Below, piece after piece: positions 8,504 through 52,757 of a stretch of DNA of 64,000 nt. Numbering within the stretch: the first letter of the stretch is position 1; every line of letters starts with the position of its first letter. Origin of the DNA: Oscillospiraceae bacterium (lineage in GTDB: Bacteria; Bacillota; Clostridia; Oscillospirales; Oscillospiraceae); the NCBI GenBank assembly GCA_030625685.1, contig DAOUQJ010000004.1, forward strand, positions 7,028-71,027, in the 5' to 3' direction. Position numbers and translations under genes: made by a program. The notes beneath the pieces are model-generated. The model worked only from the letters and a program-made list of their open reading frames with translations. It had not been told where the DNA came from and searched no databases.

Positions 8504-8521
8504 ATAAGTTCCTTTCTGGTT

Positions 8522-17573: not shown

Positions 17574-18439
17574 ATGAACTCACTTTGTTGCTACAATGTG
17601 ACGAACTAATCAAACAAGCTCTGCGGGAAGACATCACAAGTGAAGACGTCTCCACCAATGCTGTCATGCCTCAAGCCAAACAAGGAAGTGTAGACCTCAT
17701 TTGTAAAGAAGATGGCGTCATCGCTGGGCTTCCCGTTTTTGGACGCACCTTTTCCCTTTTGGATGACCAAGCACGCATCAAGCTTTACTGCAAAGATGGC
17801 GATGCCGTCCAAAAAGGGCAAGTTATTGCACGTGTATATGGTGACATTCGCGTACTCCTTTCTGGAGAACGCGTTGCACTCAACTACCTCCAACGCATGA
17901 GTGGCATTGCTACCTACACAAGAGCTATGGTCGCACTTTTAGAAAACACTACGACAAAGTTACTTGATACGAGAAAAACAACACCAAACAACCGTGTGTT
18001 TGAAAAATATGCCGTCAAAGTTGGTGGCGCACAAAACCATCGCTATAACTTATCCGATGGTGTCATGCTCAAAGACAACCACATTGCAGCAGCGGGTGGT
18101 GTCCAAAAAGCAATTGAAATGGCAAAGGCATACGCACCTTTTGTCCGGAAAATTGAAGTAGAAACCGAAACACTTGACAGTGTGCGCGAAGCGGTAGAAG
18201 CTGGTGCAGATATCATCATGCTCGACAACATGACCATCCCTCAAATGCAAGAGGCAATGAGCATCATTGATGGACGAGCAGAAACGGAATGCTCAGGAAA
18301 CGTAACTTTAGAACGAATTGCTGCGCTATCCCAATTGGGTATTGACTACATTTCAAGTGGAGCACTCACCCATTCAGCGCCCATTTTGGATATTTCAATG
18401 AAAAACCTAAAACCAATTGAGGAGGGAGATTGTACATGA
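17570..18439 (+). CDS. nadC: Nicotinate-nucleotide pyrophosphorylase (carboxylating)
   Basis: LLDTRKTTP, NHR and IMLDN motifs. Confidence 0.9.
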   Translation: MNELTLLLQCDELIKQALREDITSEDVSTNAVMPQAKQGSVDLICKEDGVIAGLPVFGRTFSLLDDQARIKLYCKDGDAVQKGQVIARVYGDIRVLLSGERVALNYLQRMSGIATYTRAMVALLENTTTKLLDTRKTTPNNRVFEKYAVKVGGAQNHRYNLSDGVMLKDNHIAAAGGVQKAIEMAKAYAPFVRKIEVETETLDSVREAVEAGADIIMLDNMTIPQMQEAMSIIDGRAETECSGNVTLERIAALSQLGIDYISSGALTHSAPILDISMKNLKPIEEGDCT

Positions 18440-18996
18440 CAGTATCAGAACGTCGCGGTGAAATATTAAAACTCCTTCAAAATACCGACTCTCCAATCAC
18501 AGCCAAAGATTTAGCTCTTCGCTTCAACGTAAGTAGACAGGTCATTGTGCAAGACTTATCTGTCATACGTGTGGCTCATCCAAACATCATTTCAACCTAT
18601 CGTGGCTATCTCTTTCAACTTGCCACCACGCATTCCAGAGAGTTTAAGCTGCGTCATACAGACGATAAAGTGGAAGAAGAGCTCAATTTAATCGTCGACC
18701 TTGGTGGTCGCGTACAAAATGTCAGCATCAGCCATAAGTTTTATGGACGTGTCACAGCTGAAATGAACATCAGCTCTCGCCAAGATGTACAAGAATTCAT
18801 TGCTGCACTTCGCTCAGGTCAATCTAGTCACTTGAGTAACGCCACAGGTGGATATCATTACCACCTTGTCGAAGCACTCAGCGAAGAGCGCCTAGATATG
18901 ATAGAAAAGACCTTGGCAGAGCATAATTTTCTAGCCCCACTTAGCCCTTGGGAAATGTATGAAAAAAATTCAAAAAACGCAAATTTAAAATCATAG
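18430..18996 (+). CDS. niaR: NiaR (YrxA)-type transcriptional repressor of NAD biosynthesis
   Basis: N-terminal HTH (ERRGEILKLLQ...ITAKDLALRFNVSRQVIVQDL) and a C-terminal 3H-like domain. The gene is embedded in the nad operon. Confidence 0.8.
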   Translation: MYMTVSERRGEILKLLQNTDSPITAKDLALRFNVSRQVIVQDLSVIRVAHPNIISTYRGYLFQLATTHSREFKLRHTDDKVEEELNLIVDLGGRVQNVSISHKFYGRVTAEMNISSRQDVQEFIAALRSGQSSHLSNATGGYHYHLVEALSEERLDMIEKTLAEHNFLAPLSPWEMYEKNSKNANLKS

Positions 18997-19025
18997 AAAC
19001 AATACGATACGATGGAGGTTCCCTC

Positions 19026-19943
19026 ATGACCATTCATGAAATTCAAGCAGAAATTCTGCGTTTAAAAAAAGAAAAGAACATTTGTATTCTTGCACATAGC
19101 TACCAAGGACATGAAATTTTAGAAATCGCTGACTATACAGGCGATTCATATGGCCTCAGTGTAGAGGCGACCAGCGCAGATCAAGACACCGTGCTCATGT
19201 GTGGTGTTCGTTTTATGGCAGAGACTTGCAAAGTTCTCTCCCCAGAAAAAAAAGTCATCTTAGCTTCTCCTGACGCTGGCTGTCCAATGGCTGACCAAAT
19301 GGATCGAGCAATGATTGAGAAAGTGAAAATAGACTATCCCAACCACGCTGTCGTCTGCTACATCAATACCACTTCTGAACTCAAAACTGTGTGTGATGTC
19401 TGTGTAACATCTTCCTCAGCTGTACAAATATGCAATCAACTCCCGCAAAAAGACATTCTATTTATCCCAGACCAAAATTTAGCACAATATGTGGCTGAAA
19501 TGCTCCCAGAGAAAAACATCAAGTTTTTAGATGGTTGCTGTCCTTATCATGCTCTCATGACTATAGAAGATGTAAATCATGCGCGCAAATTATATCCAAA
19601 CGCGCAACTACTAGTGCATCCAGAGTGTCCTCCTGCGGTTGCCAAAGCAGCTGATTATGTCGGCTCTACGACAGGAATCATGCAATATGCTGCAAACTCT
19701 GAACACAATGAATTTATTATTGGAACCGAAACAAGCATTGTCGAGCACATGCAGTTTTCTTATCCTGATAAACATTTTTACCCACTATCAGGTTCTCTCA
19801 TGTGTCCTGAAATGAAAAAGACCACGCTCATGGATGTCTATCACTGCCTCAAACACAATGCAGGTGAAGAAATTGTTCTTTCAGCAGATGTTATGGAAGG
19901 CGCAAAACGCTGTATTGACGAAATGATTCGTTTGGGTGGCTAA
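19026..19943 (+). CDS. nadA: Quinolinate synthase
   Basis: ILAHSYQ, VRFMAET and HPECP motifs. Confidence 0.9.
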   Translation: MTIHEIQAEILRLKKEKNICILAHSYQGHEILEIADYTGDSYGLSVEATSADQDTVLMCGVRFMAETCKVLSPEKKVILASPDAGCPMADQMDRAMIEKVKIDYPNHAVVCYINTTSELKTVCDVCVTSSSAVQICNQLPQKDILFIPDQNLAQYVAEMLPEKNIKFLDGCCPYHALMTIEDVNHARKLYPNAQLLVHPECPPAVAKAADYVGSTTGIMQYAANSEHNEFIIGTETSIVEHMQFSYPDKHFYPLSGSLMCPEMKKTTLMDVYHCLKHNAGEEIVLSADVMEGAKRCIDEMIRLGG

Positions 19944-21811: not shown

Positions 21812-23119
21812 TCATTCATCATAGATATTGACGATTTCACCACTGAGCACACGATTCATATTTTTGACGGCACAGAAGTTACCACACATACTACAAGTAT
21901 CTTGTTTTTCTGGCTCCCCTTCTGCTCGATAACGTCTGGCTTTTTCTGGATCCATGGATAGGGAGAACATTTTTTCCCAATCGAGATTTTTTCTCGCTGT
22001 GCTCATTTCATAATCCCAATCTGCGGCATTGGGAATGCCTTTTGCGATATCAGCAGCATGTGCCGCAATTTTTGATGCAATGATGCCTTCTTTTACGTCA
22101 TTTACATCAGGCAACCTCAAATGTTCTGCTGGTGTGACATAACATAAAAAGGAAGCCCCGTGGGTTGCCGCAATCGCTCCGCCAATTGCCGCTGTGATAT
22201 GGTCATATCCTGGTGCCACATCAGTAACCAATGGACCCAACACATAAAATGGAGCGCCATGACAAAGAGTCTTTTGGATTTCCATATTTGCTGCAATCTG
22301 ATTGATTGGCATGTGTCCTGGCCCTTCAATCATGACCTGTACATCTTTTTCCCACGCACGCAGGGTAAGTTCTCCCAAAGTGATGAGTTCTTCGATTTGC
22401 GCAGCGTCTGTCGCATCTGCAAGAGAACCTGGACGACAAGCATCACCCAAACTCAAAGTCACATCATATTCTCGACAGATATCAACAACGGTGTCATAAT
22501 GCTCATAAAAGGGGTTTTCTTTACCCGTCATTTCCATCCAGGCAAAGATAATAGAACCACCGCGCGAAACAATATTCATCAGACGCTCATTGCGTTTGAA
22601 TTTTTCTGCATTCTCTTTGTTAATGCCACAGTGAATGGTCATAAAATCGACCCCATCTTCAGCATGCATGCGCACTACATCAATCCATTCTTCACTGGTG
22701 ATTGTGGCAAGAGGCTTGGCATAATGAATCACAGCGTCATAAATTGGCACTGTGCCAATCATAGCTGGGCATTTTTCCGTCAGCAGTCTTCTGAATTTTC
22801 TCGTATCCCCAAAAGAGCTCAAGTCCATAATTGCTTCTGCACCCATGTCTACCGCTTGATTGACTTTTTCTAGTTCCATTTCCATATCAACCATATCACG
22901 AGACGTGCCTAAATTAACATTGATTTTGGTGGTCAGCATAGAACCAATGCCGTTCGGATTGATACATGTGTGACGCACATTACAAGGAATGATTACCTTA
23001 CCTTCCGCCACCAAACGCATCAGCGTGTCTTCTGCCAAGTGTTCTTTTTTCGCTACCGCTTTCATCTCATCAGTTAAAAAACTGTTTTTGGCAGCTTCCA
23101 TTTGTGTATGATAACGCAT
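21812..23119 (-). CDS. thiC: Phosphomethylpyrimidine synthase
   Basis: Full-length ThiC pattern, including the C-terminal CSMCGNFCA cluster motif. Confidence 0.9.
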
Positions 23120-27213: not shown

Positions 27214-28811
27214 ATTTTACATACCCTCTCTTGGAACAAAAGGCGCTTCAAGACGTCAGTTTCACAGTGAAAAAAGGTGAGTTTTTAACAATCTTTGGCC
27301 CGAGTGGTTGTGGCAAAACAACGCTCATTTCTCACCTCAAGCCCTCACTCACACCCCATGGCAGCAAAGACGGAACCATCTTATTTAATGGCATCCCCAT
27401 TGACAGCTTAGATATGCGCACTGAAGCTGCGAAAATCGGCTATATTTTTCAGCACCCAGACGAACAAATCGTAACCGACAAAGTTTGGCATGAAATCGCC
27501 TTTGGCCTTGAAAACCTAGGGAAGCCACAAGACTATATCCGCCGCAGTGTCTCTGAAATGGCAAGTTATTTGGATATTGGGCATCTCTTTCATCGCAATG
27601 TTTCTTCTTTAAGTGGTGGTGAAAAACAGCTCCTCAATTTGGCTAGTGTCCTCGCGATGCATCCGGATGTCATCATCCTAGACGAACCCACAAGCCAACT
27701 TGACCCCATTCATGCCACGCAGTTTTTGGATGTCATTGCGAAACTCAATCGCGACTTGGGCATCACCATCATCATGATTGACCATCGCTTAGAAGATATT
27801 TTACCCATGAGCGACCGCGCACTATTGTTGGAAGACGGTAAAATTGGCTGTCTCAGCTCCCCGAAAGACGTTTGTCTTCATCTGGCAAATACCAAGCACA
27901 GCTTACTCAAATCTGTTCCCTCTGGCATTCAAATTTTTGCTGAAATCAATCCAGAGCACATGCCTCTCACAACAGGCAAAGCACGTTTGCAGTTAGAAGA
28001 AGTGTTTTGCAATCCACATCCCCAAGCAGTCACATTTCCCTCTCCAAATAAGCATGAGGATACTCACATTGTTCTTAAAGCCAAAAACCTCTCATTCCGA
28101 TATCAAAAGCATGGCGCAGATATTTTAAAACACTTAACTATGCAAATTCCACGTGGCTCTTTCTACACCATTTTAGGCGCAAATGGTGCTGGGAAATCAA
28201 CGCTACTGTCTCTCATCGCAAAAGTAAACAAACCGTATACAGGGAAACTTACGGTGCATGGCTCAGTTGCGACACTTCCACAAAATCCACAAAGTCTTTT
28301 TCTCAAGCAAACTGTGTGGGATGATTTGCATACCGTTTGTCAAGATGATGAAAAAATCCGTACTCTTGCACAAAAAACAAACATAGAGACAATATTTGAG
28401 CATCATCCCTATGATATCAGTGGCGGTCAAATGCAACTGGTAGCCCTAACAAAGGTACTACTCACTGACCCTGAAATCTTGCTTTTAGATGAACCAACCA
28501 AAGGCTTGGATGCTGAGAGCAAACTGCGATTGGCGAACATTCTCAAGTCACTGATTGAACAAGGCGTCACTGTCATTGTCGTTTCCCATGATGTGGAATT
28601 TTGCGCACAGCATGCCCAGATGTGTGCGATGATGTTTGATGGTTCTTTGATCAGTGAAGCCGACACGCGAAGCTTTTTCTCAAGCAACTATGTTTACACA
28701 ACATCTGCTAACAAAATTGCAAGAACAATACAACCCAATGCCATCACAGTGGAGGATGTTTTAACGCTATGGAACAACTATCAGCAAAACGCAGAAACCT
28801 TATCTTATTAA
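27186..28811 (+). CDS. Fused duplicated ECF/ABC ATPase (EcfA-EcfA')
   Basis: Two Walker A motifs (GPSGCGKTT, GANGAGKST), two signatures (LSGGEKQ, ISGGQMQ) and two Walker B motifs (ILDEPT, LLDEPT). Confidence 0.85.
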   Translation: MDIFHIENLNFTYPLLEQKALQDVSFTVKKGEFLTIFGPSGCGKTTLISHLKPSLTPHGSKDGTILFNGIPIDSLDMRTEAAKIGYIFQHPDEQIVTDKVWHEIAFGLENLGKPQDYIRRSVSEMASYLDIGHLFHRNVSSLSGGEKQLLNLASVLAMHPDVIILDEPTSQLDPIHATQFLDVIAKLNRDLGITIIMIDHRLEDILPMSDRALLLEDGKIGCLSSPKDVCLHLANTKHSLLKSVPSGIQIFAEINPEHMPLTTGKARLQLEEVFCNPHPQAVTFPSPNKHEDTHIVLKAKNLSFRYQKHGADILKHLTMQIPRGSFYTILGANGAGKSTLLSLIAKVNKPYTGKLTVHGSVATLPQNPQSLFLKQTVWDDLHTVCQDDEKIRTLAQKTNIETIFEHHPYDISGGQMQLVALTKVLLTDPEILLLDEPTKGLDAESKLRLANILKSLIEQGVTVIVVSHDVEFCAQHAQMCAMMFDGSLISEADTRSFFSSNYVYTTSANKIARTIQPNAITVEDVLTLWNNYQQNAETLSY

Positions 28812-29491
28812 TTTGCATGCTCCTCATTCCTACAATCTTAATATTTGCACATTTTTACTTGGACGAAGCACGCTACTACCTCACAAGTTCCCTTGTCGTC
28901 TTACTGAGCCTAATCCCATTCATCCTTCTCTTTGAGAGAAGACAAGCCCAAGCTAAAGAAATTGTTTTAATTTCTGTCATCTGCGCCATTGCTGTAGCAG
29001 GTCGCACTGCATTTTATATGCTCCCTCAATTCAAACCTCTCGTCGCTATTGTCATTATCGCAGGGGTTTGCCTTGGCAGTGAATCTGGTTTTATGGTTGG
29101 TGCCATCTCTGCTTTTGTGTCCAATTTTTTTGTAGGACAAGGCCCATGGACACCATATCAAATGCTCGCTCTTGCGATAATTGGCGCCTTAGCTGGTTTT
29201 CTCTTTTCCCGCAAGTTACTCAAACCCAAGCTTTTTAATTTATGTGTGTTTGGTTTTCTTTCTACCTATCTAATTTATGGGCTTATTTTAGATGCTCACT
29301 TCACCTTAGCCGCCTTTGGTACCATCACTTTAAAAAACTATGTTGTTGCCATCACCTCAGGTTTTTTTCCAAACCTGCTCCACAGCACAGCGAGCGTCTT
29401 ATTTTTACTGCTATTTGCTAAGCCCTTTATGAAACAAATAGACCGCATTACGATCAAATATGGACTAGTATTTGGCGAAAATGGTCACTAA
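28769..29491 (+). CDS. ECF transporter substrate-specific (S) component, substrate unknown
   Basis: About 6 TM helices in 240 aa, overlapping the ATPase gene. The gene order is typical for a dedicated ECF module. Confidence 0.6.
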   Translation: MEQLSAKRRNLILLICMLLIPTILIFAHFYLDEARYYLTSSLVVLLSLIPFILLFERRQAQAKEIVLISVICAIAVAGRTAFYMLPQFKPLVAIVIIAGVCLGSESGFMVGAISAFVSNFFVGQGPWTPYQMLALAIIGALAGFLFSRKLLKPKLFNLCVFGFLSTYLIYGLILDAHFTLAAFGTITLKNYVVAITSGFFPNLLHSTASVLFLLLFAKPFMKQIDRITIKYGLVFGENGH

Positions 29492-29504
29492 TACTGCTTT
29501 GCAC

Positions 29505-29531
29505 ATAACTGAGCTTGTATCTGCATACACT
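29505..29531 (+). promoter_or_regulatory. Candidate sigma-E-type (mother-cell) promoter upstream of spoIIID
   Basis: ATA (29505-29507), a 16-nt spacer, CATACACT (29524-29531). This fits the recalled sigma-E consensus ATA-N16/17-CATACAnT, and it ends 19 nt before the AAGGAG SD. Confidence 0.4.
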
Positions 29532-29566
29532 CTCTACATAATGCTACGCAAGGAGTGTTGCCGTTA

Positions 29567-29680
29567 GTGAGAGAAACAATAGAAGAACGTGCTTGTCAAT
29601 TGGCACTTTACATCATAGAAAACAATGCCACTGTCCGAAGTACAGCCACGCAATTTGGTATTTCAAAGTCAACTGTACAT
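29567..29680 (+). CDS. spoIIID: spoIIID 5' segment (codons 1 to ~38, HTH region); the gene is interrupted here
   Basis: (V)RETIEERACQLALYIIENNATVRSTATQFGISKSTVH parallels B. subtilis SpoIIID ...KERTIKIGKYIVETKKTVRVIAKEFGVSKSTVH. After H the similarity stops. The ORF-track 101-aa ORF reads on into unrelated sequence. Confidence 0.8.
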
Positions 29681-29681
29681 A
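29670..29681. repeat. Left junction (attL) core CAACTGTACATA, identical to 37391-37402
   Basis: A 12-bp direct repeat read at both junctions, with the presumed crossover CA at 29678-29679. Confidence 0.8.
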
Positions 29682-29711
29682 CAGTTGTCACAAAACAGAA
29701 CGTTTTACCTA

Positions 29712-29746
29712 ACGCTGAGACACTTCGTCTTAGCGTATTTTATTTT
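29712..29746 (+). terminator. Intrinsic terminator just inside the left end of the element
   Basis: 10-bp stem acgctgagac/gtcttagcgt (one G-T pair), followed by ATTTTATTTTA. Confidence 0.5.
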
Positions 29747-29801
29747 ATAAAACGCACAATCCATGCCAACCTTTTATTCTGTATTATCCTAGGAGAATTA
29801 T

Positions 29802-30473
29802 ATGAAACGACAAATTATCATCCCCAGTCTCATCGCTTGTACCATCTTATTTTTGATTGAACAATACTTACACGTTCCATTCATTGTCAAATCCATGATT
29901 AAACTGCCGACCTTTGCTATTTTGCCTCTTTGGTACATAAAAGCAATCAAAAAGGAGACCATAAAAAGGGCACTCAATTTACAGCATTTCAAACTTTCTG
30001 AAGTCAAACTAGGGTTACTTTTATCTGCTATCTTAGTGATTCTCATTCCCCTAGTCTACTTTACTGTTGCAACACCGTATATAGACACTGCTAAACTGAT
30101 TTCAGAGCTCAGCCTAATCGGCGTGACAAAGACTAACTTTCTCTTCGTATCACTATACATTGCCATCGTCAATTCATTTTTAGAAGAATTCTTCTTTAGA
30201 GGCTTCGTATTTTTGAACTTATATGAAACACATGCACGCTTTAGCATGGTCTTTTCTGCCCTTCTTTTTGCAACATATCATATTGGTATTTTTGTCTCTT
30301 GGTTTCAAATTTCTATGCTATTTCTGGCTCTGTTTTCTCTATTTATTGGTGGTCTTATCTTCAATTTTTTGGCAACTAAAAGCAAAAATTTTCTCAATTC
30401 GTGGCTTGTGCATTTCTTTGCTGACGCTGTCATCTTGGTCTTAGGCGGACTAATTTTGCATGAAATAATTTAA
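29802..30473 (+). CDS. CPBP-family (CAAX) intramembrane metalloprotease
   Basis: Polytopic protein with EEFFFRGF and a later FATYH / HFFAD pattern. Confidence 0.8.
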   Translation: MKRQIIIPSLIACTILFLIEQYLHVPFIVKSMIKLPTFAILPLWYIKAIKKETIKRALNLQHFKLSEVKLGLLLSAILVILIPLVYFTVATPYIDTAKLISELSLIGVTKTNFLFVSLYIAIVNSFLEEFFFRGFVFLNLYETHARFSMVFSALLFATYHIGIFVSWFQISMLFLALFSLFIGGLIFNFLATKSKNFLNSWLVHFFADAVILVLGGLILHEII

Positions 30474-30546
30474 CGCCAAAGCCTTGCTATTACTAGCTTT
30501 TTCATGTTTTTCACCTCTCTTTTTGCAAGAGTTTTGAAAAATTTTG

Positions 30547-30576
30547 TTGACAACGCAACTTGAATATGCGTATACT
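30547..30576 (+). promoter_or_regulatory. Candidate sigma-A promoter of the rib leader
   Basis: TTGACA (30547-30552), an 18-nt spacer, TATACT (30571-30576). Confidence 0.45.
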
Positions 30577-30596
30577 TTAAGCTAAGAATTGAATAC

Positions 30597-30731
30597 TGAT
30601 AATTTTCGGGATGGTGTGAAATTCACCACCGGCGGTAAAAGTCCGTGAGCGTTGCGTGTTTAAACTTGCAATTAGCTGATCTTGTGGAATTCAAGAACCG
30701 ACAGTATAGTCTGGATGGGAGAAAAATTGTC
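30597..30731 (+). promoter_or_regulatory. FMN riboswitch (RFN element)
   Basis: TTCGGGATGGTGTGAAATTCACCACCGGCGGTAAAAGTCCGTGAGC...GTGGAATTCAAGAACCGACAGTATAGTCTGGATGGGAGAA matches the RFN consensus blocks. P1 is AATTTTC/GAAAAATT. Confidence 0.85.
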
Positions 30732-30777
30732 ACATATGAAGTATGTAACTTTGTTTACATATGTCTTTTTGTGTTGT

Positions 30778-30808
30778 CCTGAAGAAATAACTTCAGGGCT
30801 TTTTTTAT
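30778..30808 (+). terminator. Riboswitch expression-platform terminator
   Basis: Stem cctgaag/cttcagg followed by GCTTTTTTT. Confidence 0.65.
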
Positions 30809-30828
30809 TTTGAAAGTGGGGTGATGAC

Positions 30829-31926
30829 TTGAATAATCATGAATTTTATATGCAAAAAGCATTAGAACTAGCCAAACAAGGCGAGGGACATGTGAATCCC
30901 AATCCTATGGTTGGCGCTGTCATAGTAAAAGATGGCGAAATCCTATCCACCGGTTATCACAAACAATTCGGAAAACGACACGCAGAACGAATCGCAATAG
31001 AAGATGCCCCGACAAGCGTCGAAGGTGCAACGCTGTATGTCACGTTAGAACCTTGCTGTCACGTAGGAAAAACACCCGCGTGCACCGACATCATTCTGCA
31101 AAGTGGAATCAAAACTGTGGTCGTCGCCATGCAAGACCCTAATACACTTGTCAGCGGAAAAGGCAATCAGATTTTGCGAGAACATGGCGTTGAAGTCATC
31201 GTAGGCGTGTTGGAACACGAAGCAAAGGCACTCAATGAAATTTTTTGCAAATTCATAACGAAAAGAAATCCCTTTGTTACCTACAAATACGCTATGACGC
31301 TAGACGGAAAAATTGCAACGCCCAACGGTGCTTCACAGTGGATTTCATCTGAAGCGTCACGCAACTATGTTCAGCATTTGCGCAACAAACACATGGCCAT
31401 CATGGTCGGCGTAAACACTGTCCTTTCTGACAACCCACGACTCAATCCTCGGATTCCAAATCCAAGCACTAGCATCAAAATCATTGTGGATAGCCTCGGA
31501 AAAACACCGCTAGACAGCAATATATTCACATCACCTGGTGAAGTCATCATTGCAGCAACCTATCAAATCGAACCGCAAACAGAAGAAGCGCTCATCCAGC
31601 ATGGTGCAACGGTAATCAAGACCACAGCAGTTGACGGTCAAGTCAATCTCGCTGAGCTTTTAGAGGCGCTTCATAAAAGACAAATTGACAGCATCTTATT
31701 GGAAGGCGGCAAGACCTTGGCAGGCAGTATGCTCACACTTGGTCTCATTGACAAAATTGAAGCGTTTGTCTGTCCTAAAATCATTGGTGAAGGACTCTCG
31801 CCTGTGGGTGGATTTTCCCTCACTGACATTGCAGACAGCATTTCATATTCCATCAAAGATGTAAAAACAATCGGTCAAGATGTGCTACTCACAGCGTATA
31901 AGGAGACACTATGTTTACAGGATTAA
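30829..31926 (+). CDS. ribD: Bifunctional diaminohydroxyphosphoribosylaminopyrimidine deaminase / 5-amino-6-(5-phosphoribosylamino)uracil reductase
   Basis: HAERIAI...TLEPCCHVGKTPAC deaminase zinc motif plus a reductase domain. Confidence 0.9.
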   Translation: MNNHEFYMQKALELAKQGEGHVNPNPMVGAVIVKDGEILSTGYHKQFGKRHAERIAIEDAPTSVEGATLYVTLEPCCHVGKTPACTDIILQSGIKTVVVAMQDPNTLVSGKGNQILREHGVEVIVGVLEHEAKALNEIFCKFITKRNPFVTYKYAMTLDGKIATPNGASQWISSEASRNYVQHLRNKHMAIMVGVNTVLSDNPRLNPRIPNPSTSIKIIVDSLGKTPLDSNIFTSPGEVIIAATYQIEPQTEEALIQHGATVIKTTAVDGQVNLAELLEALHKRQIDSILLEGGKTLAGSMLTLGLIDKIEAFVCPKIIGEGLSPVGGFSLTDIADSISYSIKDVKTIGQDVLLTAYKETLCLQD

Positions 31927-32546
31927 TCGAAGAAATTGGAACCGTTGAGCGCATCCAATCACATGGAACATCAAAACAGCTCAGCATCCATTGTGATAAA
32001 GTTCTCGATGCTGTCTCTATGGGAGATAGCATTGCAACCAATGGCGTATGCTTAACCGTTTCAGACTTTACAAAAAACGCTTTCACAGCAGATGTCATGG
32101 TAGAAACGGTCACCAAAACCAACTTATCTAGCATAAAGATTGGCGACAAAGTCAATTTAGAGAGAGCATTGCGTGTTGGTGACAGATTGGGCGGACATTT
32201 TGTTTCAGGTCACATTGATGGCACAGGCAAAATTCGTTCCGTTCGTAGACTGGAACACGACATTCTCATTAAGATTTCCTGTCCAGATGACCTACTTTCC
32301 TTTATTGTGGAAAAAGGCTCCATCGCTATTGACGGCATTAGCCTAACGGTTGCAAATCTCGGACGAGATTACTTCACCGTTTCCATCATTCCCACCACCA
32401 GCAGTGACACAACACTCACCTCAAGAAATGTAGGCGACGTTGTCAATTTGGAATGTGACATGATCGGAAAATACATTTATAAATTTACAAATCGTGATAC
32501 CCAAGGGGTCACGCTCGACTTACTCAAAGAAAACGGCTTTATTTAG
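31911..32546 (+). CDS. ribE: Riboflavin synthase alpha chain
   Basis: [10 protein letters not shown] start and a duplicated lumazine-binding repeat ([13 protein letters not shown] / [12 protein letters not shown]). Confidence 0.9.
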
Positions 32547-32557
32547 GAGGATTATCT

Positions 32558-33754
32558 ATGTTTGACACGATTGAACAAGCCATAGAAGACATCAAACAAG
32601 GCAAAATGATTGTCGTCGTTGACGATGAAGATAGAGAAAACGAAGGAGATCTTCTCATGGCTGCAGAAAAAGCCACCATGGAAAGCATCAACTTTATGGC
32701 AACTTACGGTCGTGGACTCATTTGTGTGCCCATGAAACGTGATCGCCTTGACAACCTTGGCATTGATCTTATGGTTAAAAATACGACTGACCCCAAAGAA
32801 ACTGCATTTACCATCAGCGTTGACTGCGTTACAAACTCCACTGGCATTTCAGCGCACGACAGAGCAGATACCATCGCTGCCCTTGTCAATGATGAGAGTA
32901 AAAAAACTGATTTTACTACCCCTGGTCATATCTTCCCTCTCATTAGTAAAGAAGGCGGTGTACTGAAACGCGCAGGTCATACTGAAGCTGCCACAGACTT
33001 TGCTACTCTTGCAGGTCTCAAACCAGCTGGCGTAATCTGTGAAATCATGAATGACGATGGCACGATGGCTAGAGTTCCTGACCTCATTAAATACAAAGAA
33101 AAGCACAACCTCACGTTTGTCACCATCAAAGATTTGATTGCTTATCGCAGAAAAACTGAAAAAATCATTCGCAGAGAAGCTGAAGTGCCAATGCCAACCA
33201 AATATGGCGAATTCAAAGCAGTAGGCTATGAAAACAAACTAGATGGCACTCATCATGTAGCACTAGTCAAAGGCGATATTTCCCCTGATGAACCTGTTTT
33301 GGTACGTGTACACTCCGAATGCCTAACGGGTGACGTATTCGGCTCACTACGTTGCGACTGTGGTGAACAGTTTGCTGCTGCCATGAACGCCATTGAAAAA
33401 GAAGGTAAAGGCATTTTACTTTATCTAAGACAAGAAGGCCGCGGCATTGGTCTTATCAATAAACTCAAAGCCTATCATCTGCAAGACCAAGGTATGGACA
33501 CTGCAGAGGCCAATCTTGCCCTCGGTTTTCCCGCTGAAATGCGTGAGTATGGTGTTGGGGCTGAAATCTTATCGGATTTGGGTGCAAACAAAATTCGTCT
33601 TCTCACAAACAATCCTAAGAAAATCAGTGGGCTGTCTGGATACGGCATTGAAATTGTAGAACGTGTTCCCATTGATATGGGTTATCACGAAGAAAACTAT
33701 CACTATTTGAAGACAAAGAAAAATAAAATGGGTCACATCTTAGACATCAACTAA
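32558..33754 (+). CDS. ribBA: Bifunctional 3,4-dihydroxy-2-butanone-4-phosphate synthase / GTP cyclohydrolase II
   Basis: [11 protein letters not shown] (DHBP synthase) and [18 protein letters not shown] (GCH II) motifs. Confidence 0.9.
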
Positions 33755-33769
33755 TAAGGAGAATTAATC

Positions 33770-34231
33770 ATGAAAAAATTTGAAGGATTATTACATTCCA
33801 CAGGCAAAAAATATGGCATTGTTGTTGGACGTTTCAACGATTTCATTGGCAGCAAACTGTTAGATGGCGCGATTGATGCTCTCACTCGTCACGGCGTTGA
33901 CCGCTCTGAAATCGAAATCGCCTATGTTCCTGGCGCTTTTGAAATCCCACTTGTGGCGCAAAAAATGGCGCAAAGCGATACGTATCATGCCGTCATCTGT
34001 TTGGGTGCAGTCATCAAAGGCAGCACACCACACTTTGACTACGTATCCAGTGAAGTGACAAAAGGCATTGCGCAAGTTTCTCTACAAACTGGCAAACCAG
34101 TTATCTTTGGCGTTCTCACCACTGATTCTATTGAGCAAGCAATTGAACGTGCAGGCACAAAATCTGGAAACAAAGGCTTTGAAGCTGCAGTCACTGCCAT
34201 TGAAATGGTCAATTTGTTGGAAAGCATTTAA
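33770..34231 (+). CDS. ribH: 6,7-dimethyl-8-ribityllumazine synthase
   Basis: [11 protein letters not shown] and VPGAFEIPL motifs. Confidence 0.9.
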
Positions 34232-34270
34232 CCTTGTCACATTATTAAAATTTCCTCCCCTATATATTCA

Positions 34271-34309
34271 AAAAACACCTCTTCAAGATGAAGAGGTGTT
34301 TTCTTTTTC
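34271..34309. terminator. Bidirectional terminator between ribH and the HD-domain gene
   Basis: Stem acacctcttc/gaagaggtgt flanked by A and T runs. Confidence 0.65.
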
Positions 34310-34321
34310 ATTATTCATTGG

Positions 34322-34807
34322 TTATGCCGGTACATGTGCTGGTCTATACTTGCTTCTCACGAAGAATCTAAGACGTCCAAAGTATTCTGCGATGGCAAGA
34401 CCTTTGTCAACAAAGCTGACCACAAAGGCTTCTCTCGTCTTTGGCAATCCCATTGGGAACATGTGACCTGTAATGATATTTCGTTCTTTGGCATTGAGCT
34501 CAAAGTGTTGTAGTGCATTTTGTAGTGCAATTTTAGGATGGTTTTTTGTGTGACAAAACGCGTCTTTCAACAAACTTAATCCACTGGTTTTTTTGAATTT
34601 ATACAAGTAAAAATCATGTAAGAGGCATCCTCTTGTGATAGCCACATGATCCAATTTTAGCTTCTTGGCAATTTTATAAGAAACATATGCTGTTCCCAAA
34701 CAGTGATCAAACACAGTACCATGGTGGTGCGGAATGTTTCGCATTTCTAAATATGCTTCATGCGTAATGATAGGTCTGGCAATTTGGTAAAACTCTTTTT
34801 TATGCAT
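34322..34807 (-). CDS. HD-domain phosphohydrolase
   Basis: The H...HD pattern (HHHGTVFDHCL, LLHD) in a 161-aa protein. Confidence 0.65.
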   Translation of the reverse strand: MHKKEFYQIARPIITHEAYLEMRNIPHHHGTVFDHCLGTAYVSYKIAKKLKLDHVAITRGCLLHDFYLYKFKKTSGLSLLKDAFCHTKNHPKIALQNALQHFELNAKERNIITGHMFPMGLPKTREAFVVSFVDKGLAIAEYFGRLRFFVRSKYRPAHVPA

Positions 34808-35031
34808 GAGCTGGCATTACCCCTTTCAGAAATCATTGCAACTATCCTGCTAATCATATTGTATCACATTTACTGTGCTTTGCAAGTCATTTATAAAGGT
34901 AATACAGCAATAAAACACCCCACATTTTGTCATAATATACAAATTGAACGGGGTGTTTTCTCAATTTTTCAATATATTTTCACAAATGAGAATATATGTG
35001 TTATATTGAATGTATGAAAAAATGAAGATAC

Positions 35032-35463
35032 TTAGTCTAGTTTATATTCAAAACAGTATGCGCATTTATGGAAACCATACTTTTCATAAAATTTATGCGC
35101 ACCTTCTCTTGGCAAACCAGTGTCAAGAATCATGGCATGACAACCATGTTCAGTTGCAATGGTTTTTGTATGGTTCATAAGGGCAGTGCCATAGCCTTTT
35201 GTTCTTTGATCTTCATTTGTGATAATACTTGCAATATAACAAGTTTTTCCAGACATCCAAAATGTATTGAAAAAGGAACCATGACAAAATCCAACTGGTT
35301 TTCCGTCATCATACAAGAAGAACGCAAAGTCATTCTCGTTTTTAAGCACTTCTTTGTAAACCTTTTCAATCACTGCGCGATCGTATGTGTTATACGTCCA
35401 AAGTTTTTCGATATAATCAAAAGCCAAATCAAAATCATCCATAGTTGCATTTTTAATTTCCAT
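35032..35463 (-). CDS. GNAT-family N-acetyltransferase
   Basis: QRTKGYGTALMNH (the R/QxxGxG/A acetyl-CoA motif). Confidence 0.8.
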   Translation of the reverse strand: MEIKNATMDDFDLAFDYIEKLWTYNTYDRAVIEKVYKEVLKNENDFAFFLYDDGKPVGFCHGSFFNTFWMSGKTCYIASIITNEDQRTKGYGTALMNHTKTIATEHGCHAMILDTGLPREGAHKFYEKYGFHKCAYCFEYKLD

Positions 35464-35640
35464 GATTAATTCCCCTTATTGTAAAAATTCTACAATAGAT
35501 TATATCACACAATTTCCATATTGCAAGCTTGTATTCCTTTGTTTTTTCGTGATAATGACCAATTCATCGCTTCACAATCAATCATTGGTATGTTGCTCTT
35601 CCCTTCTGCATAGAAATGAAAGAGAAAGGATGGACAAGCC

Positions 35641-35811
35641 ATGTGTACAGAAAAACAAAACTTGCAAATACGTTTTCATAACCCCAATCCGCAAGGGGAT
35701 TTTGAACGACATCTATGTCATTTACTTGCAAAGGAGCTGAGCATTATTTCAGCTACGCAAGTTAATGTGCTCGAACATCCCCCCTATTCCCATCAAAAAC
35801 AACCTAAATGA
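35641..35811 (+). CDS. Small ORF (56 aa) upstream of the recombinase gene; candidate accessory or directionality factor
   Basis: Below the ORF-track cutoff. MCTEKQNLQIRFHNPNPQGDFERHLCHLLAKELS... AGGA lies about 10 nt upstream. I recognise no homology. Confidence 0.3.
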   Translation: MCTEKQNLQIRFHNPNPQGDFERHLCHLLAKELSIISATQVNVLEHPPYSHQKQPK

Positions 35812-35877
35812 TTACGAGCAAGGCTAATTGCCTTGCTCGCTTAGCTATATCCCAATTTTTGAAAGCAGGTGATCACA

Positions 35878-37371
35878 ATGCAGGCAGTTGCCTACTGTCG
35901 CGTATCCACAAACAAAGAGGAACAAATAGATAGTCTTCAAGCACAACAAGAGTTTTTTACAGAATATGCAAAAAGGCACAATCACGAACTCATCGAAATC
36001 TATGCTGATGAAGGCAAAAGTGGGACCAAAATGAAACACAGGGTCGCTCTCATTCAAATGTTATGCGATGCTGAGCGAGGTGAGTTTCAAATGGTTCTCA
36101 TTAAAGACGTTTCCAGACTTGCTAGAAATACCGTTGATTTTTTAACAAGCATTCGCAAACTCAAATCTGCAGGAATAGAAGTCATCTTTGTCAATTATGA
36201 TATGACAACATCAGACTCCAGTGAGTTTATGCTCACCATGCTCTCTGCCATCGCACAAGAAGAGAGCTCTAACACCTCAAAGAGAATAAAATTTGGTAAA
36301 AAAATAAATGCAGAAAAGGGACGCATTCCAAATTTATGTTATGGGTATGAAAAAACAAAGGGCGATTACTTTCAGCTTGCAATAAACCCCGAAGAGGCCG
36401 CCATTATACAAAACATCTTTCATATGTATATTCATGAAGGCTTGGGGTCAAGTCGCATTGCCAAACAGCTCAACGCACAAGGCGCTCTCACCAAACGACT
36501 GCTACCTTTTAGTCAGCATAGCATTTCTCGCATCCTCACAAATGAAATCTACATAGGAAAAGTTGTCAATGGCAAAGAGTGTATTGAAGATTTTCTAACT
36601 GGAAAGCGCCTTTCCCAGCCTGAAGATGCTTGGTCTATCACGTGCAATGAATCTCTTCGCATTATAGATGATGAAACCTTTTTCAAAGCGCAACGAGTCA
36701 TGAAAGATCGTCAAAATACCTTTCATCAAACTGGTGAAAAGAAAAGCTCTAAACACCCATTTTCCAAAGTCATTTACTGTGCATGTTGTGGATACGCATA
36801 CCGTCAAATCGTGCGAAAGTATAAACGCACCTATGTGCGCTGGTGTTGTAGTGGGCGCAATACGAAAGGCACAGACTTTTGCCATAACACGGTAAATCTT
36901 GACGAGCAATTTCTGCTGAGCACAATCAAATCAAAGCTACTCGAAATGCTACAATCTCAGCAAAATGCCTTGTTTCTCATCAAAACTGAATATCAAAAGT
37001 GTATGAAGACTACCAAACGTGATGCTACCAATATACTCACATTAAAAAAAGAGCGTGACCTTTTTAAACACCACATGCGAAAATACAAAGAAATGTTCAA
37101 AGCAAATATCATTGAACTAAACGAACTTCAACTGGAAACGACTAGACTCCAAGACAAAATTGATGTTTTGGATTGTCGCATAGCAAATCATGCCACCTGT
37201 AGCAAACCACCTTTGCTTTCTCTGCTCGATCATACTAGTGCTTGTGATGGGTTAGAAAGCATTCTGACTCTAATGCCCTTTTCGAATCAATTCATTTGTG
37301 AACTTGTAGAAAATATCACCGTAGATCATGACGGTGCTGTTTGCATCAATTTCAAGCAACTCAAACACTAA
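35878..37371 (+). CDS. Large serine recombinase (resolvase/invertase catalytic domain, recombinase domain and zinc ribbon)
   Basis: MQAVAYCRVSTNKEEQ (catalytic Ser), DVSRLARN, AQEESSNTSKRIKFG, and Cys-rich CACCGYAY...WCCSG. The stop is about 20 bp from the right att core. I prefer ATG 35878 to the upstream GTG. Confidence 0.9.
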   Translation: MQAVAYCRVSTNKEEQIDSLQAQQEFFTEYAKRHNHELIEIYADEGKSGTKMKHRVALIQMLCDAERGEFQMVLIKDVSRLARNTVDFLTSIRKLKSAGIEVIFVNYDMTTSDSSEFMLTMLSAIAQEESSNTSKRIKFGKKINAEKGRIPNLCYGYEKTKGDYFQLAINPEEAAIIQNIFHMYIHEGLGSSRIAKQLNAQGALTKRLLPFSQHSISRILTNEIYIGKVVNGKECIEDFLTGKRLSQPEDAWSITCNESLRIIDDETFFKAQRVMKDRQNTFHQTGEKKSSKHPFSKVIYCACCGYAYRQIVRKYKRTYVRWCCSGRNTKGTDFCHNTVNLDEQFLLSTIKSKLLEMLQSQQNALFLIKTEYQKCMKTTKRDATNILTLKKERDLFKHHMRKYKEMFKANIIELNELQLETTRLQDKIDVLDCRIANHATCSKPPLLSLLDHTSACDGLESILTLMPFSNQFICELVENITVDHDGAVCINFKQLKH

Positions 37372-37390
37372 AAACCGTTCTATTATATGA

Positions 37391-37402
37391 CAACTGTACA
37401 TA
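37391..37402. repeat. Right junction (attR) core CAACTGTACATA
   Basis: Identical to 29670-29681. Confidence 0.8.
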
Positions 37403-37548
37403 AAGACTTATCAGAACGTCTGCCTTCATTTAACCAGCCTTTGTACATGCAAGCCAAGCGTGTATTAGAGCAAAACAAAGCAGAACGCCATATTAGAGGC
37501 GGAATTGCCACTCGCAATAAGTATAAAAGTAATTGTGTTGAATCATAG
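37401..37548 (+). CDS. spoIIID: spoIIID 3' segment (about 48 codons plus stop)
   Basis: Not in the ORF track because it has no start codon. In frame with the 5' segment it reads (STVH)KDLSERLPSFNQPLYMQAKRVLEQNKAERHIRGGIATRNKYK. Compare B. subtilis STVHKDLTERLPEINPDLANEVKEILDYHKSIRGHLGGKATKLKYK. Confidence 0.8.
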
Positions 37549-46778: not shown

Positions 46779-48377
46779 TCAGGAATCTTCTAAAATTTTA
46801 CTTTCTGTTATAAAAAATTTATACTCCCAATTAGCTCTACTAATACGAAAATGAATATCAAATATGTAGGGAAATGCATGAAAGTAAATTTGAACACTTC
46901 GATTAAATATAACTATTTTATCAATTATACTCTGATATAGTTGTTCGGATCTTATGCTATGATTAAAAATATTGTTAATTGTATTAAGAATATTTTCAAA
47001 CCGTTCCTTTTGCTGTTTTTGCATTGACTCTTGAATTTCTAGTTCATGAATATCTTTAAATAAAATATTTAATCTTTGATCAAGTTCTGTTTTTAAAATA
47101 TTCAATTCTTCTCTTGTTATCTTTTCATCTATCAATGCACTTATAGCATTAGATTTTTTGTTTTTTAATACATCAACTTTTCTTTTCAGTATATTAATTC
47201 TTCTATTGTAATTGATATATTTTAAACTAGTAATTTCTTTTAAGATTTCTTTTTTGGTTTCTATAGCATTATCACATAATAAATCTATTGCTTCATTTAT
47301 ACATAATATGAGTATATCTTCTCGAATCCTAGCATTATTACAACCCACAAATTCATTATTGTCGTTTAAATGCTGTTTACCATTCTTCCTTTTATTCCCG
47401 CATACCCAAGAATGATTATAACCTTCTTTGCTCTTTGTCATAGAAGAAAGAAACTTGTGTCCACATTCACCACAAAATACTTTTCCTGAACACCAATATT
47501 TATTTGAAAACTTCGATTTATCTTTTTGAGGAGTTTGTCGTGATTTAAGAATAACTTGAGCCTTATTCCAACGTTCTCTATCAATAATCGCTTCGTGATT
47601 ATTCTCTATGTAAATCTTATCATCTTTATCTTTATTTAATTCTTTGATATGCGATAAAAAGTCCTTTGTAATATACTTTTTATGTAGAATATCTCCTACA
47701 TATTTTTCGTTTTTTAGTATCTTTAAAACACTTTCTTCAGACCACAAATCAGCATATACTGGTTTAATCCCTTTATTATTTAATTCTTTCGCTATTACAC
47801 TTGAACCTTTTTGTTCCTCTACATATTTATAATAAATTTGTTTTACAATTTCAGCTTGGCTTTCATTAATTGATAGTTTTCCGTCTACTAAATTATATCC
47901 TAAAATTGAGTTGTTTCCAAATACAACCCCCTGTTCCATCCGTCTCTTTTGACCCCATTTGACACGTTCAGAAGTTTTTCTGGATTCTTCCTGAGCAACA
48001 GAAGCCATAATAGTGAGTCGAAACTCGCCTTCGTTATCAAGAGTATTGATGTTATCATTGATAAAAAAAACGCCAACTCCAATTTCTTTCAATTTTCTCG
48101 TTTGAGTCAAAGTATCCACCGTATTTCTTGAAAAACGTGATACTTCTTTTGTGATAATTAAATCAATCTCTCTATGATTTGCTAAAAATATCATTTTATT
48201 AAATTGCACTCGATTCTTAATAGATGTGCCTGAAATTCCTTCATCAGCAAAGATTGCAACTAACTCCCAGTCATCGTGTTCTTCTATATATGACTTAAAA
48301 TACTTTTGTTGGTTTTCTAAACTGTTGACTTGGTCTTCTTTGTCAGTAGATACTCTACAATAAACTGCTACCTTCAT
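46779..48377 (-). CDS. Large serine recombinase (paralog A)
   Basis: MKVAVYCRVSTDKEDQ, EVSRFSRNT, AQEESRKTSERVKWG, and zinc ribbon CSGKVFCGECGHKF...WVCGN. About two-thirds identical by eye to 50705-52333. Confidence 0.9.
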   Translation of the reverse strand: MKVAVYCRVSTDKEDQVNSLENQQKYFKSYIEEHDDWELVAIFADEGISGTSIKNRVQFNKMIFLANHREIDLIITKEVSRFSRNTVDTLTQTRKLKEIGVGVFFINDNINTLDNEGEFRLTIMASVAQEESRKTSERVKWGQKRRMEQGVVFGNNSILGYNLVDGKLSINESQAEIVKQIYYKYVEEQKGSSVIAKELNNKGIKPVYADLWSEESVLKILKNEKYVGDILHKKYITKDFLSHIKELNKDKDDKIYIENNHEAIIDRERWNKAQVILKSRQTPQKDKSKFSNKYWCSGKVFCGECGHKFLSSMTKSKEGYNHSWVCGNKRKNGKQHLNDNNEFVGCNNARIREDILILCINEAIDLLCDNAIETKKEILKEITSLKYINYNRRINILKRKVDVLKNKKSNAISALIDEKITREELNILKTELDQRLNILFKDIHELEIQESMQKQQKERFENILNTINNIFNHSIRSEQLYQSIIDKIVIFNRSVQIYFHAFPYIFDIHFRISRANWEYKFFITESKILEDS

Positions 48378-52654: not shown

Positions 52655-52757
52655 GAAAATCCGATAACAGCAAACTTGCCGAAAGGCAAGGACGCAAAGC
52701 CAAGGGTCTAATGCTGAGCAGCAATCTGCAAGGCTATGACAGCCGGTTGCCGAAGGT
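52655..52757 (+). promoter_or_regulatory. c-di-GMP-I (GEMM-I) riboswitch
   Basis: AACAGCAAACTTGCCGAAAGGCAAGGACGCAAAGCCAAGGGTCTAA...GACAGCCGGTTGCCGAAGG matches Vc2-type blocks: GCAAAC, a GAAA tetraloop, GGACGCAAAGCC, and GGTTaCCGAtGG. Confidence 0.85.

Follow-up and report, generated by a model that had tools for sequence, protein, structure and literature searches.

The subject of this analysis is spoIIID, the gene for a mother-cell transcription factor of sporulation, and the element that interrupts it in a 64-kb stretch of DNA from an Oscillospiraceae bacterium (contig DAOUQJ010000004.1; 64,000 nucleotides, referred to below as the window). The gene is present in two parts, 29567-29680 and 37402-37548, which share a reading frame and are separated by 7,721 bp (29681-37401, with boundaries that are arbitrary within a common 12-bp core). 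The intervening DNA belongs to the gene-intervening elements of the skin/gin type and is not a phage; a large serine recombinase (LSR) has integrated it into an attachment site, attB, in spoIIID. The insertion sits inside the coding sequence of a sporulation gene that is expressed in the mother cell. Judged from its sequence and from those of its relatives, the element is probably a conserved developmental DNA switch that would be excised during sporulation. Offered more tentatively is a wider reading, in which the splitting of spoIIID is an old switch widely kept in Clostridia of gut and soil (Oscillospiraceae, Ruminococcus, Lachnospiraceae), a sigma-E-driven recombinase and a factor of the small 'FHNPN' family, not recognised before, would rebuild the gene, and the element carries vegetative genes. 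If this is true, spoIIID would have to be rebuilt before the mother-cell programme passes the sigma-E stage, and vegetative cargo would be cut from the chromosome of the terminal mother cell and kept in the germ line. A preliminary description of this DNA, made from the sequence alone, had recognised the split gene and its recombinase; the riboflavin cargo of the element, the conserved small open reading frame (ORF) beside the LSR and a second split sporulation gene are additions to it.

Reconstruction of spoIIID and its attachment sites

The ORF that begins at GTG 29567, behind a Shine-Dalgarno sequence AAGGAG at 29550-29555, encodes VRETIEERACQLALYIIENNATVRSTATQFGISKSTVH and unrelated sequence after that. 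Both the reading of the sequence and a hidden Markov model (HMM) bear out the earlier statement that it follows the helix-turn-helix of SpoIIID as far as ...GISKSTVH and then diverges. This 5' part (29567-29680, plus strand) comprises codons 1-38, from the helix-turn-helix to ...SKSTVH, and covers HMM positions 1-43 in hmmsearch. GTG 29555 is ruled out as the start by its overlap with the Shine-Dalgarno sequence, and GTG 29567 suits the N terminus of the family. The continuation in the same frame was likewise found, from 37402, where it reads KDLSERLP...RGGIATRNKYKSNCVES up to a stop codon (the whole 3' reading is KDLSERLPSFNQPLYMQAKRVLEQNKAERHIRGGIATRNKYKSNCVES). This 3' part (37402-37548, plus strand) supplies codons 39-86, the stop and the basic C-terminal region ...ERHIRGGIATRNKYK, and covers HMM positions 35-81. 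The insertion point therefore lies after codon 38, among the codons of the recognition helix, between ...SKSTVH and KD....

Deletion of the 7,721 bp in silico gives an ORF of 261 nt, or 86 codons plus stop, exactly as had been proposed. Neither half spans the SpoIIID model by itself, and the joined ORF aligns with it over nearly its full length, scoring 116.1 bits against TIGR02844, the NCBI equivalog for SpoIIID (cut-off 111.5; model positions 2-79 of 80), and covering positions 1-81 of 82 in Pfam PF12116 (E = 9e-37). Its product is, over 90-100% of its own length, 74-84% identical to intact SpoIIID proteins, the named ones being from Oscillospiraceae (Pseudoflavonifractor, Flavonifractor). 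No near-identical intact spoIIID was found, the closest intact protein being 84% identical; the relatives with an intact gene show no synteny with the window locus, and an empty site in the same species is not demonstrable. A second, intact spoIIID had been named as something to look for, and tblastn at E values up to 100 detected none within the 64-kb window. An independent assembly, Logan SRR14270297, contains the recombinase, the spoIIID 3' fragment and fakA in identical order and, because the gene order on the attR side is thus repeated, the junction is not the product of a chimeric contig.

A sigma-E-like promoter, recognised by its match to the consensus, lies just upstream of spoIIID (29503-29531, plus strand; ACATAAC, 14 nt, CATACACT) and has a modest score with a position weight matrix (PWM) trained on promoters of relatives. 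Its -10 element fits well with the Bacillus subtilis sigma-E consensus, CATACAmT. The ATA in its -35 element is the motif described for sigma-E (PMC3789822), and spoIIID is a sigma-E-dependent mother-cell gene in both B. subtilis and Clostridioides difficile (PMC517825, PMC3789822).

Both junctions contain the 12-mer CAACTGTACATA, at 29670-29681 and at 37391-37402. It has no other copy in the window on either strand, and a given 12-mer would be expected by chance about 0.004 times in 64 kb. When the ends of the element are joined they form TGACAACTGTA-CA-TACAGTTGTCA, the perfect 11-bp inverted repeat about CA that had been reported. The crossover dinucleotide CA lies within an invariant TACATA and, being non-palindromic, fixes the orientation of recombination. 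attL (29655-29710, plus strand) is a hybrid of a B arm and a P' arm around the core at 29670-29681, with the central CA at 29678-29679; attR (37366-37420, plus strand) is a hybrid of a P arm and a B' arm around the core at 37391-37402, with the central CA at 37399-37400. The distal motifs of attL are GAAAT at offset 13 in the B arm and GAACG at offset 18 in the P' arm, and those of attR are GAACG at offset 18 in the P arm and GAACG at offset 13 in the B' arm.

This spacing recurs in related elements. At 11 loci with both ends of the element, the window included, the four arm types were aligned outward from the central CA, and a proximal motif TA(c/a)(a/g)G(t/a)TG was common to all of them. The offset of a distal GAAcG-like motif is 18 for the two attP arms, in 11/11 and 10/11 loci, and 13 for the two attB arms, in 9/11 and 10/11. 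Structures of a Listeria phage integrase from Rutherford, Van Duyne and colleagues reportedly predict just such a 5-bp shift between the outer motif of attP and that of attB, involving the zinc-ribbon domain of LSRs. Because the distal motif is shifted by 5 bp, the flanks can be taken as real attL and attR hybrids, true products of attP x attB recombination. The attB site falls on the recognition-helix codons, which are the most conserved DNA of spoIIID and would explain how recombinases that have diverged still share one target. Excision is predicted to leave the attB junction ...AAGTCAACTGTACATAAAGACTT... on the chromosome (also as ...TTTCAAAGTCAACTGTACATAAAGACTTATCAGAACG...) and the attP junction ...ATGACAACTGTACATACAGTTGTCAC... 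on a circle (also as ...TATATGACAACTGTACATACAGTTGTCACAAAAC...).

The recombinase, its partner and their relatives in Clostridia

The LSR gene (35878-37371, plus strand) encodes 497 amino acids from ATG 35878, or 500 if GTG 35869 is used. Its resolvase domain (PF00239, residues 6-152, E = 2.6e-34) is accompanied by the C-terminal domains PF07508 (174-281) and PF13408 Zn_ribbon_recom (297-357), the protein matches the PHROG 95 integrase (E = 2e-106), and residues of about 380-450 have a heptad-rich appearance by eye; in LSRs, a coiled-coil motif set into the zinc-ribbon domain is where directionality is controlled. In an alignment of 25 sequences, made up of the window and 24 relatives, the catalytic serine in AYCRVST and the zinc-ribbon cysteines are invariant. 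The stop codon ends at 37371, which is 19 bp ahead of the right core (the preliminary description had estimated about 20 bp), and the relatives show the same placement. A phage or plasmid origin of the enzyme was rejected: the closest phage and plasmid recombinases are about 30-39% identical to it, so that no close mobile-element donor is apparent.

Relatives of the LSR at about 50% identity number in the thousands in Clostridia. To survey them, one genome per GTDB species was scanned with a profile of 25 LSR relatives, which found 585 relatives; the best 80 loci were kept and searched for spoIIID with the joined SpoIIID as query and with an HMM of intact SpoIIIDs. Among these best 80 loci, the recombinase is followed by a spoIIID 3' fragment in 25 species-representative genomes, and the fragment always begins at HMM position 32-36, directly after ...(S)TVH and with KD.... 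The recombinases of these loci are 42-53% identical to that of the window, and their hosts are labelled as Oscillospiraceae, Ruminococcus, Ruminococcaceae, Clostridium sp. CAG:557, Anaerocolumna, Lachnoclostridium and Lachnospiraceae. Cultured carriers include Anaerocolumna aminovalerica DSM 1283, A. jejuensis DSM 15929 and A. sedimenticola CBA3638. At most of the remaining loci in this range of identity, the sequence ends too near the recombinase to judge. At lower identity, 37-40%, five recombinases (L031, L033-L035, L041) have no adjoining spoIIID. In a further case, the 6,398-bp faecal contig MT838016.1 (locus L085, deposited as 'UNVERIFIED: Bacteriophage sp.'), the recombinase is 39% identical. 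This contig was considered as an excised circle and rejected; it is a chromosomal fragment with a recombinase and a spoIIID 3' fragment around the core GTACACAAAGAC, and its phage label seems wrong.

The 5' fragment was also captured at 10 of the loci, where the elements measure 3.4, 3.5, 3.5, 3.6, 5.4, 6.0, 6.0, 8.2, 9.9 and 12.0 kb. Excision in silico at the TACATA core restores a full-length SpoIIID, HMM positions 1-80/81 of 82, in 11/11 loci with the window included. Codon differences between split halves are nearly all synonymous: 34 synonymous against 0 non-synonymous between L024 and L032, 35 against 3 between L018 and L024, and 31 against 4 between L022 and L032. A dead gene would show another pattern; the halves are under purifying selection that keeps the gene functional. 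The divergence of the recombinases rises with that of SpoIIID (Spearman rho 0.68 over 55 pairs that are non-independent), and a permease of the Xan_ur_permease family (purine-type) is found as cargo in 8/11 elements. Together, these two observations suggest long residence with turnover of cargo rather than frequent re-invasion. Cargo in the other elements also includes a CorA transporter and a surface protein, and contents vary widely.

Directly upstream of the recombinase in the window is a small ORF of 56 amino acids, MCTEKQNLQIRFHNPNPQGDFERHLCHLLAKEL... (35641-35811, plus strand), a member of what is called here the FHNPN family, with the core l-x-i-x-F-H-N-P-N-(s/t)-x-e-e-T-A-k-(f/y)-L-x-k-i-i. 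The family was defined from the fetched loci. A motif search placed such an ORF directly upstream of the recombinase at 24 loci, window included, and an HMM added 7 further loci at E < 0.01 plus a weak one, L034 (E = 0.054). The ORF always lies just upstream of a recombinase, includes cases where the recombinase is away from spoIIID, and often overlaps the recombinase start codon in relatives. It has no match in Pfam and none in PHROGs, and in an index of 5.8 billion proteins the window ORF retrieved itself only, within the limits of a word index. Recombination directionality factors are small and mutually unrelated in sequence (PMC5025042; PMC12286644). The FHNPN protein is small, with about 35-60 conserved residues, and is strictly paired with the recombinase in a constant position, from which we infer that it is such a factor. 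Four of the recombinases at 37-40% identity (L031, L033, L034, L041) likewise have an FHNPN-type ORF directly upstream, weak in L034, and no spoIIID fragment nearby; their targets could be other sporulation genes.

In the window, the small ORF and the LSR are separated by a spacer of 67 nt that is predicted to fold as an RNA hairpin (35809-35875, plus strand), in which the stop region of the small ORF, UGAUUAC, pairs with the Shine-Dalgarno region of the LSR, GUGAUCA. As a single-sequence prediction the hairpin has -24 kcal/mol and z = -4.1, and 0/200 shuffles were equally stable. It suggests that translation of the LSR may be coupled to that of the small ORF, as overlap of the two ORFs would do in relatives.

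The promoters of these modules were sought with a sigma-E pattern built from the literature consensus, [GT][AC]ATA-NN-N13-15-CATANNNT, with ATA at -35 and CATAnnnT at -10. It occurs within about 260 nt upstream of the FHNPN ORF at 14/24 loci, where 0.018 matches are expected per 260 nt (68 matches in 976 kb of the same loci). A typical promoter in a relative reads GCATATC-14-CATAATAT. ATA at -35 distinguishes sigma-E from sigma-K (PMC3789822), and on this ground the sites in relatives are assigned to the sigma-E type.

A proposed mother-cell switch and its alternatives

The switch that we consider probable would work as follows. During vegetative growth, and in the forespore, the element would remain integrated, and spoIIID would give only a truncated transcript ending at a hairpin inside attL. 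This terminator-like structure (29712-29746, plus strand) has a 10-bp stem and a T-run, with the tail ATTTTATTTT, and lies 30 bp inside attL, where it would be expected to terminate the truncated transcript. The cargo would meanwhile be transcribed from its own promoters, which for the riboflavin operon means a sigma-70-like promoter and a flavin mononucleotide (FMN) riboswitch. In the mother cell, the 56-amino-acid FHNPN protein would act as directionality factor and allow the LSR to recombine attL with attR, releasing a 7.7-kb circle with a symmetric attP and rebuilding the 86-codon spoIIID, which would then be expressed from its own sigma-E promoter. The spore would inherit an unexcised copy. 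The insertion would be heritable, since the mother cell leaves no descendants and the element is retained in the forespore. The net effect would be a recombination step between activation of sigma-E and production of SpoIIID, one tier above sigK and skin. That excision would be confined to the mother cell is suggested by analogy with known elements, by purifying selection on the halves and by retention of the arrangement in at least 25 species.

Such a step leaves little alternative to sigma-E timing, as sigma-E is the sole mother-cell-specific factor before SpoIIID, and if the element were excised before septation, the germ line would no longer have it. The preliminary description had reasoned that the recombinase must be independent of SpoIIID. 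The logic of the cascade agrees, given that SpoIIID itself would be the product of the rearrangement, and the sigma-E-type promoters in 14/24 relatives lend it indirect support; in the window itself, no convincing promoter of this type was found upstream of the recombinase module. Whether the delay is adaptive or the insertion has merely been made harmless, both are possible, and the riboflavin operon, possibly the only means of making riboflavin, may aid retention.

Several results weigh against a developmental switch. Neither the strict pattern nor a PWM from relatives found a convincing sigma-E-type promoter upstream of the small ORF of the window, and the best candidate, GTATGTT-14-CATAGAAA, is unremarkable, ranking with the PWM no higher than the top 1.4% of window positions. 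By position and co-occurrence, the FHNPN protein is no more than a candidate directionality factor. Excision products did not turn up: the exact 44-nt attB junction is absent from JGI metagenome contigs and the exact 34-nt attP junction from IMG/VR, which is a weak negative because the organism may be unsampled in both. The single-copy status of spoIIID holds for the 64-kb window only. Lastly, an intact second spoIIID paralogue (MHPYMEERIIELANYTIE...) lies 0.5-1.2 kb upstream of the split copy at four Anaerocolumna-group loci (787-1023 in L018, labelled Lachnoclostridium sp.; 2182-2424 in L022, labelled Clostridium sp. KNHs205; 5054-5296 in L024; 5040-5282 in L025). As these loci keep an intact paralogue, the split copy may in some hosts not be the sole source of SpoIIID, and only one of two regulators may be gated.

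The same observations lend some weight to the view that an ordinary integrative element has inactivated spoIIID, in a host that is asporogenous or uses another copy, with no developmental excision. The missing excision product, the lack, in the window, of a sporulation promoter that is clearly recognisable ahead of the recombinase module and the intact paralogue beside the split copy in the Anaerocolumna group would all fit, and loss of sporulation is common among gut Clostridia. Even so, we regard this as unlikely. Both halves are intact and in frame in 11/11 loci and are under strong purifying selection, as in the 34 synonymous and 0 non-synonymous differences given above, and the arrangement persists in at least 25 species. 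The sigma-E-type promoter is strongly enriched upstream of the module in relatives, and other sporulation genes, an intact dpaB and a restorable dpaA, are retained in the window.

Slightly less likely still is excision without mother-cell control, stochastic or tied to growth phase, in mixed populations where the rebuilding of spoIIID would be a by-product. There is a precedent in yin, an element in yabG of Clostridium botulinum that was excised at all time points (PMC10747680), the module in the window is without a recognisable sigma-E promoter, and the widely differing cargo among relatives shows that gene flux is ongoing. However, frequent excision before sporulation would lose the non-replicating circle, yet elements have been retained at the same site in many species; the divergence of the recombinase tracks that of SpoIIID, and sigma-E-type promoters precede the module in the 14 relatives already mentioned. 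An assembly artefact, or two independent small genes that resemble halves of spoIIID, can be set aside as very improbable: nothing more than the general possibility of metagenome mis-assembly speaks for it, the attR junction is repeated in an independent assembly, the same break point is found beside a homologous recombinase in 25 other genomes, the att half-sites have a coherent architecture, and at the loci searched the fragments were never free-standing conserved genes away from a recombinase. Independent conserved genes of this kind were what the preliminary description had named as evidence against a split gene.

A developmental switch at spoIIID would matter for several reasons. Programmed DNA rearrangement in mother cells has been described for sigK and several late genes, and the sigK switch is SpoIIID-dependent where tested. 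A DNA switch that creates spoIIID would act at the earliest mother-cell tier and force another control logic, based on sigma-E alone. Among gut and uncultured Clostridia, in which little is known of the control of sporulation, the arrangement is common. It also offers reagents, namely a 50-bp attB/attP pair with a CA core, recombinases that are 40-55% identical to each other and use one conserved site, and a candidate family of directionality factors; such sets of recombinase, att sites and directionality factor are of practical interest as genome-engineering tools.

Comparison with known elements, cargo and neighbouring genes

Known gene-intervening elements of sporulation include skin in sigK, SPbeta in spsM, vfbin in spoVFB, vrin in spoVR, gin in gerE and yin in yabG. 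The nearest counterpart is gin (Abe et al. 2017, PMC5595907), which is also non-phage and interrupts gerE in Bacillus cereus ATCC 10987. Both elements interrupt a very small gene for a mother-cell transcription factor (225 bp for gerE and 261 bp for spoIIID), both carry their own serine recombinase with a small accessory factor (GirC and GirX in gin, the candidate FHNPN protein here), and in both a short junction core allows reconstitution in frame. They differ in that GerE acts later, with sigma-K, and SpoIIID earlier, with sigma-E; gin is 28.6 kb long with three recombinases, whereas the spoIIID element has 7.7 kb, one recombinase and a riboflavin operon as cargo. Excision of gin has been shown experimentally, and that of the spoIIID element in silico only.

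In regulatory design, the closest system is skin as found in C. difficile (recombinase CD1231; directionality factor CD1234, PMC5025042), whose excision is gated by this small sigma-E-dependent factor (PMC5025042). In skin of both B. subtilis (SpoIVCA) and C. difficile, excision by an LSR, restricted to the mother cell, rebuilds a regulator of the mother-cell cascade, and the same layout is proposed for spoIIID. The FHNPN ORF is likened to CD1234 by this layout and not by sequence alignment. The skin elements are prophage-like, with 48 kb or 14.6 kb, and their excision needs SpoIIID, on which spoIVCA depends in B. subtilis and CD1234 depends in C. difficile; the spoIIID element cannot have such a dependence. 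SPbeta (SprA/SprB), vfbin, vrin and yin are likewise LSR elements in sporulation genes expressed in the mother cell, which excision restores. However, they are prophages or resemble prophages, and the genes that they interrupt are late ones for structural proteins or enzymes; the element described here has an early regulator as target and housekeeping metabolic genes as cargo.

The preliminary description knew of no report of spoIIID as a target, and in this it overstated the novelty. In one sentence and in Table S3, Galperin et al. 2022 report a skin-like element of 64.7 kb that interrupts spoIIID in Ruminiclostridium cellulolyticum H10. This case (Ccel_3110/Ccel_3179) concerns the same gene and has a 511-amino-acid SpoIVCA-like recombinase and a 5' fragment of about 42 codons, so that the break falls at a similar place. 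It differs in its size and in that the recombinase adjoins the 5' fragment on the opposite strand. The comparison was made through the listing in Table S3, which does not extend to att sites, an accessory ORF, distribution or cargo. A Ruminococcus metagenome-assembled genome (L029, 10001-11607) also has its recombinase beside the 5' spoIIID fragment and on the opposite strand and, since it shares this layout with R. cellulolyticum, a second orientation class of spoIIID elements exists. Apart from Galperin et al. 2022, no other study of spoIIID as a target was found in the open-access literature. The breadth of the family, its common att architecture, the partner ORF with its sigma-E-type promoter, and small non-phage elements with metabolic cargo are believed to be undescribed. 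What is presented is the first analysed family of spoIIID elements within a known kind of system, and not a new kind.

The cargo of the window element is metabolic. It begins with a CPBP/Rce1-like intramembrane protease of 223 amino acids (29802-30473, plus strand; PF02517, E = 1.3e-13), followed by a complete riboflavin (vitamin B2) operon, ribD-ribE-ribBA-ribH (30829-34231, plus strand). The leader of the operon (30547-30799, plus strand), as found by promoter and terminator scans and by Rfam, consists of a sigma-70-like promoter TTGACA-18-TATACT (30547-30576), an FMN riboswitch (30598-30730; RF00050, 106 bits against a gathering threshold of 66.2, with the model complete from 1 to 138) that ends 98 nt upstream of ribD, and a terminator hairpin (30776-30799). 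The four genes, all on the plus strand, exceed the cut-offs of their NCBIfam equivalogs: ribD (30829-31926) with 352.4 bits (cut-off 156.35), ribE (31911-32546) with 241.9 (155), ribBA (32558-33754) with 645.9 (569) and ribH (33770-34231) with 191.5 (84.6). The terminator scan placed the end of the operon at 34272-34302 (plus strand). Two genes on the minus strand follow, for an HD-domain protein of 161 amino acids (34322-34807; PF01966) and a GNAT acetyltransferase of 143 amino acids (35032-35463; PF00583, E = 2e-21). Riboswitch-controlled cargo as a general theme was rejected, as seven related loci contain no riboswitch.

PHROGs detected no phage structural, lysis or replication genes in the element; its matches are the integrase, a generic acetyltransferase, a deaminase domain on ribD and one family of unknown function on ribBA. 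Pfam and NCBIfam place the remaining genes in metabolism. The element is therefore assigned to the non-phage, gin-like subclass rather than to prophage-like elements. Its riboflavin genes show that such elements can carry core metabolism instead of phage genes, which bears on their retention. The GC skew is about 0 to -0.06 within the element and about -0.15 in the flanks, and the GC content is flank-like.

The second split sporulation gene is dpaA (spoVFA), on the minus strand of the window between 44077 and 61177, whose 5' half (61177-60792) and 3' half (44553-44077) are about 16.2 kb apart. When the halves are joined at a common TACC, they give an in-frame DpaA of 287 amino acids that scores 258.7 bits (cut-off 261) against NF006162, dipicolinate synthase subunit A, and aligns from 8 to 284, end to end. 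It is followed by an intact dpaB (44070-43483, minus strand). A second sporulation gene that is split yet restorable, together with intact dpaB, speaks for a spore-forming host with several programmed rearrangements. The dpaA insert contains two paralogous LSR genes, for proteins of 532 (46779-48377, minus strand) and 542 amino acids (50705-52333, plus strand), and no FHNPN ORF stands beside either of them. The insert also has a cyclic di-GMP-I riboswitch (52659-52754) upstream of a gene for a CAP-domain protein, a thymidylate-kinase-like gene, an SLH-type surface protein and a PAS-GGDEF-HD-GYP protein.

Directly upstream of spoIIID is a gene for the S component of an energy-coupling factor (ECF) transporter (28769-29491), which weakly matches PF07155 'ECF-type riboflavin transporter S component' with 34.7 bits (cut-off 26.7); its position beside an element with a riboflavin operon may be coincidental. 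The cluster upstream of spoIIID also has DUF4430 and SLH/prenyltransferase-like proteins. Further away, at 16275-19943 and 21812-23119, the window contains genes of NAD synthesis, namely a nadB-like FAD oxidoreductase, nadC, a NiaR-type 3H-domain regulator and nadA, as well as thiC, ordinary core metabolism with no relation to the spoIIID element. Among the related loci, the 8.2-kb spoIIID element of Clostridium sp. KNHs205 (L022) contains a group II intron at 7879-9679 (Rfam RF02001, 143.5 bits; also RF01998 and RF00029), and is thus a case of one mobile element nested in another.

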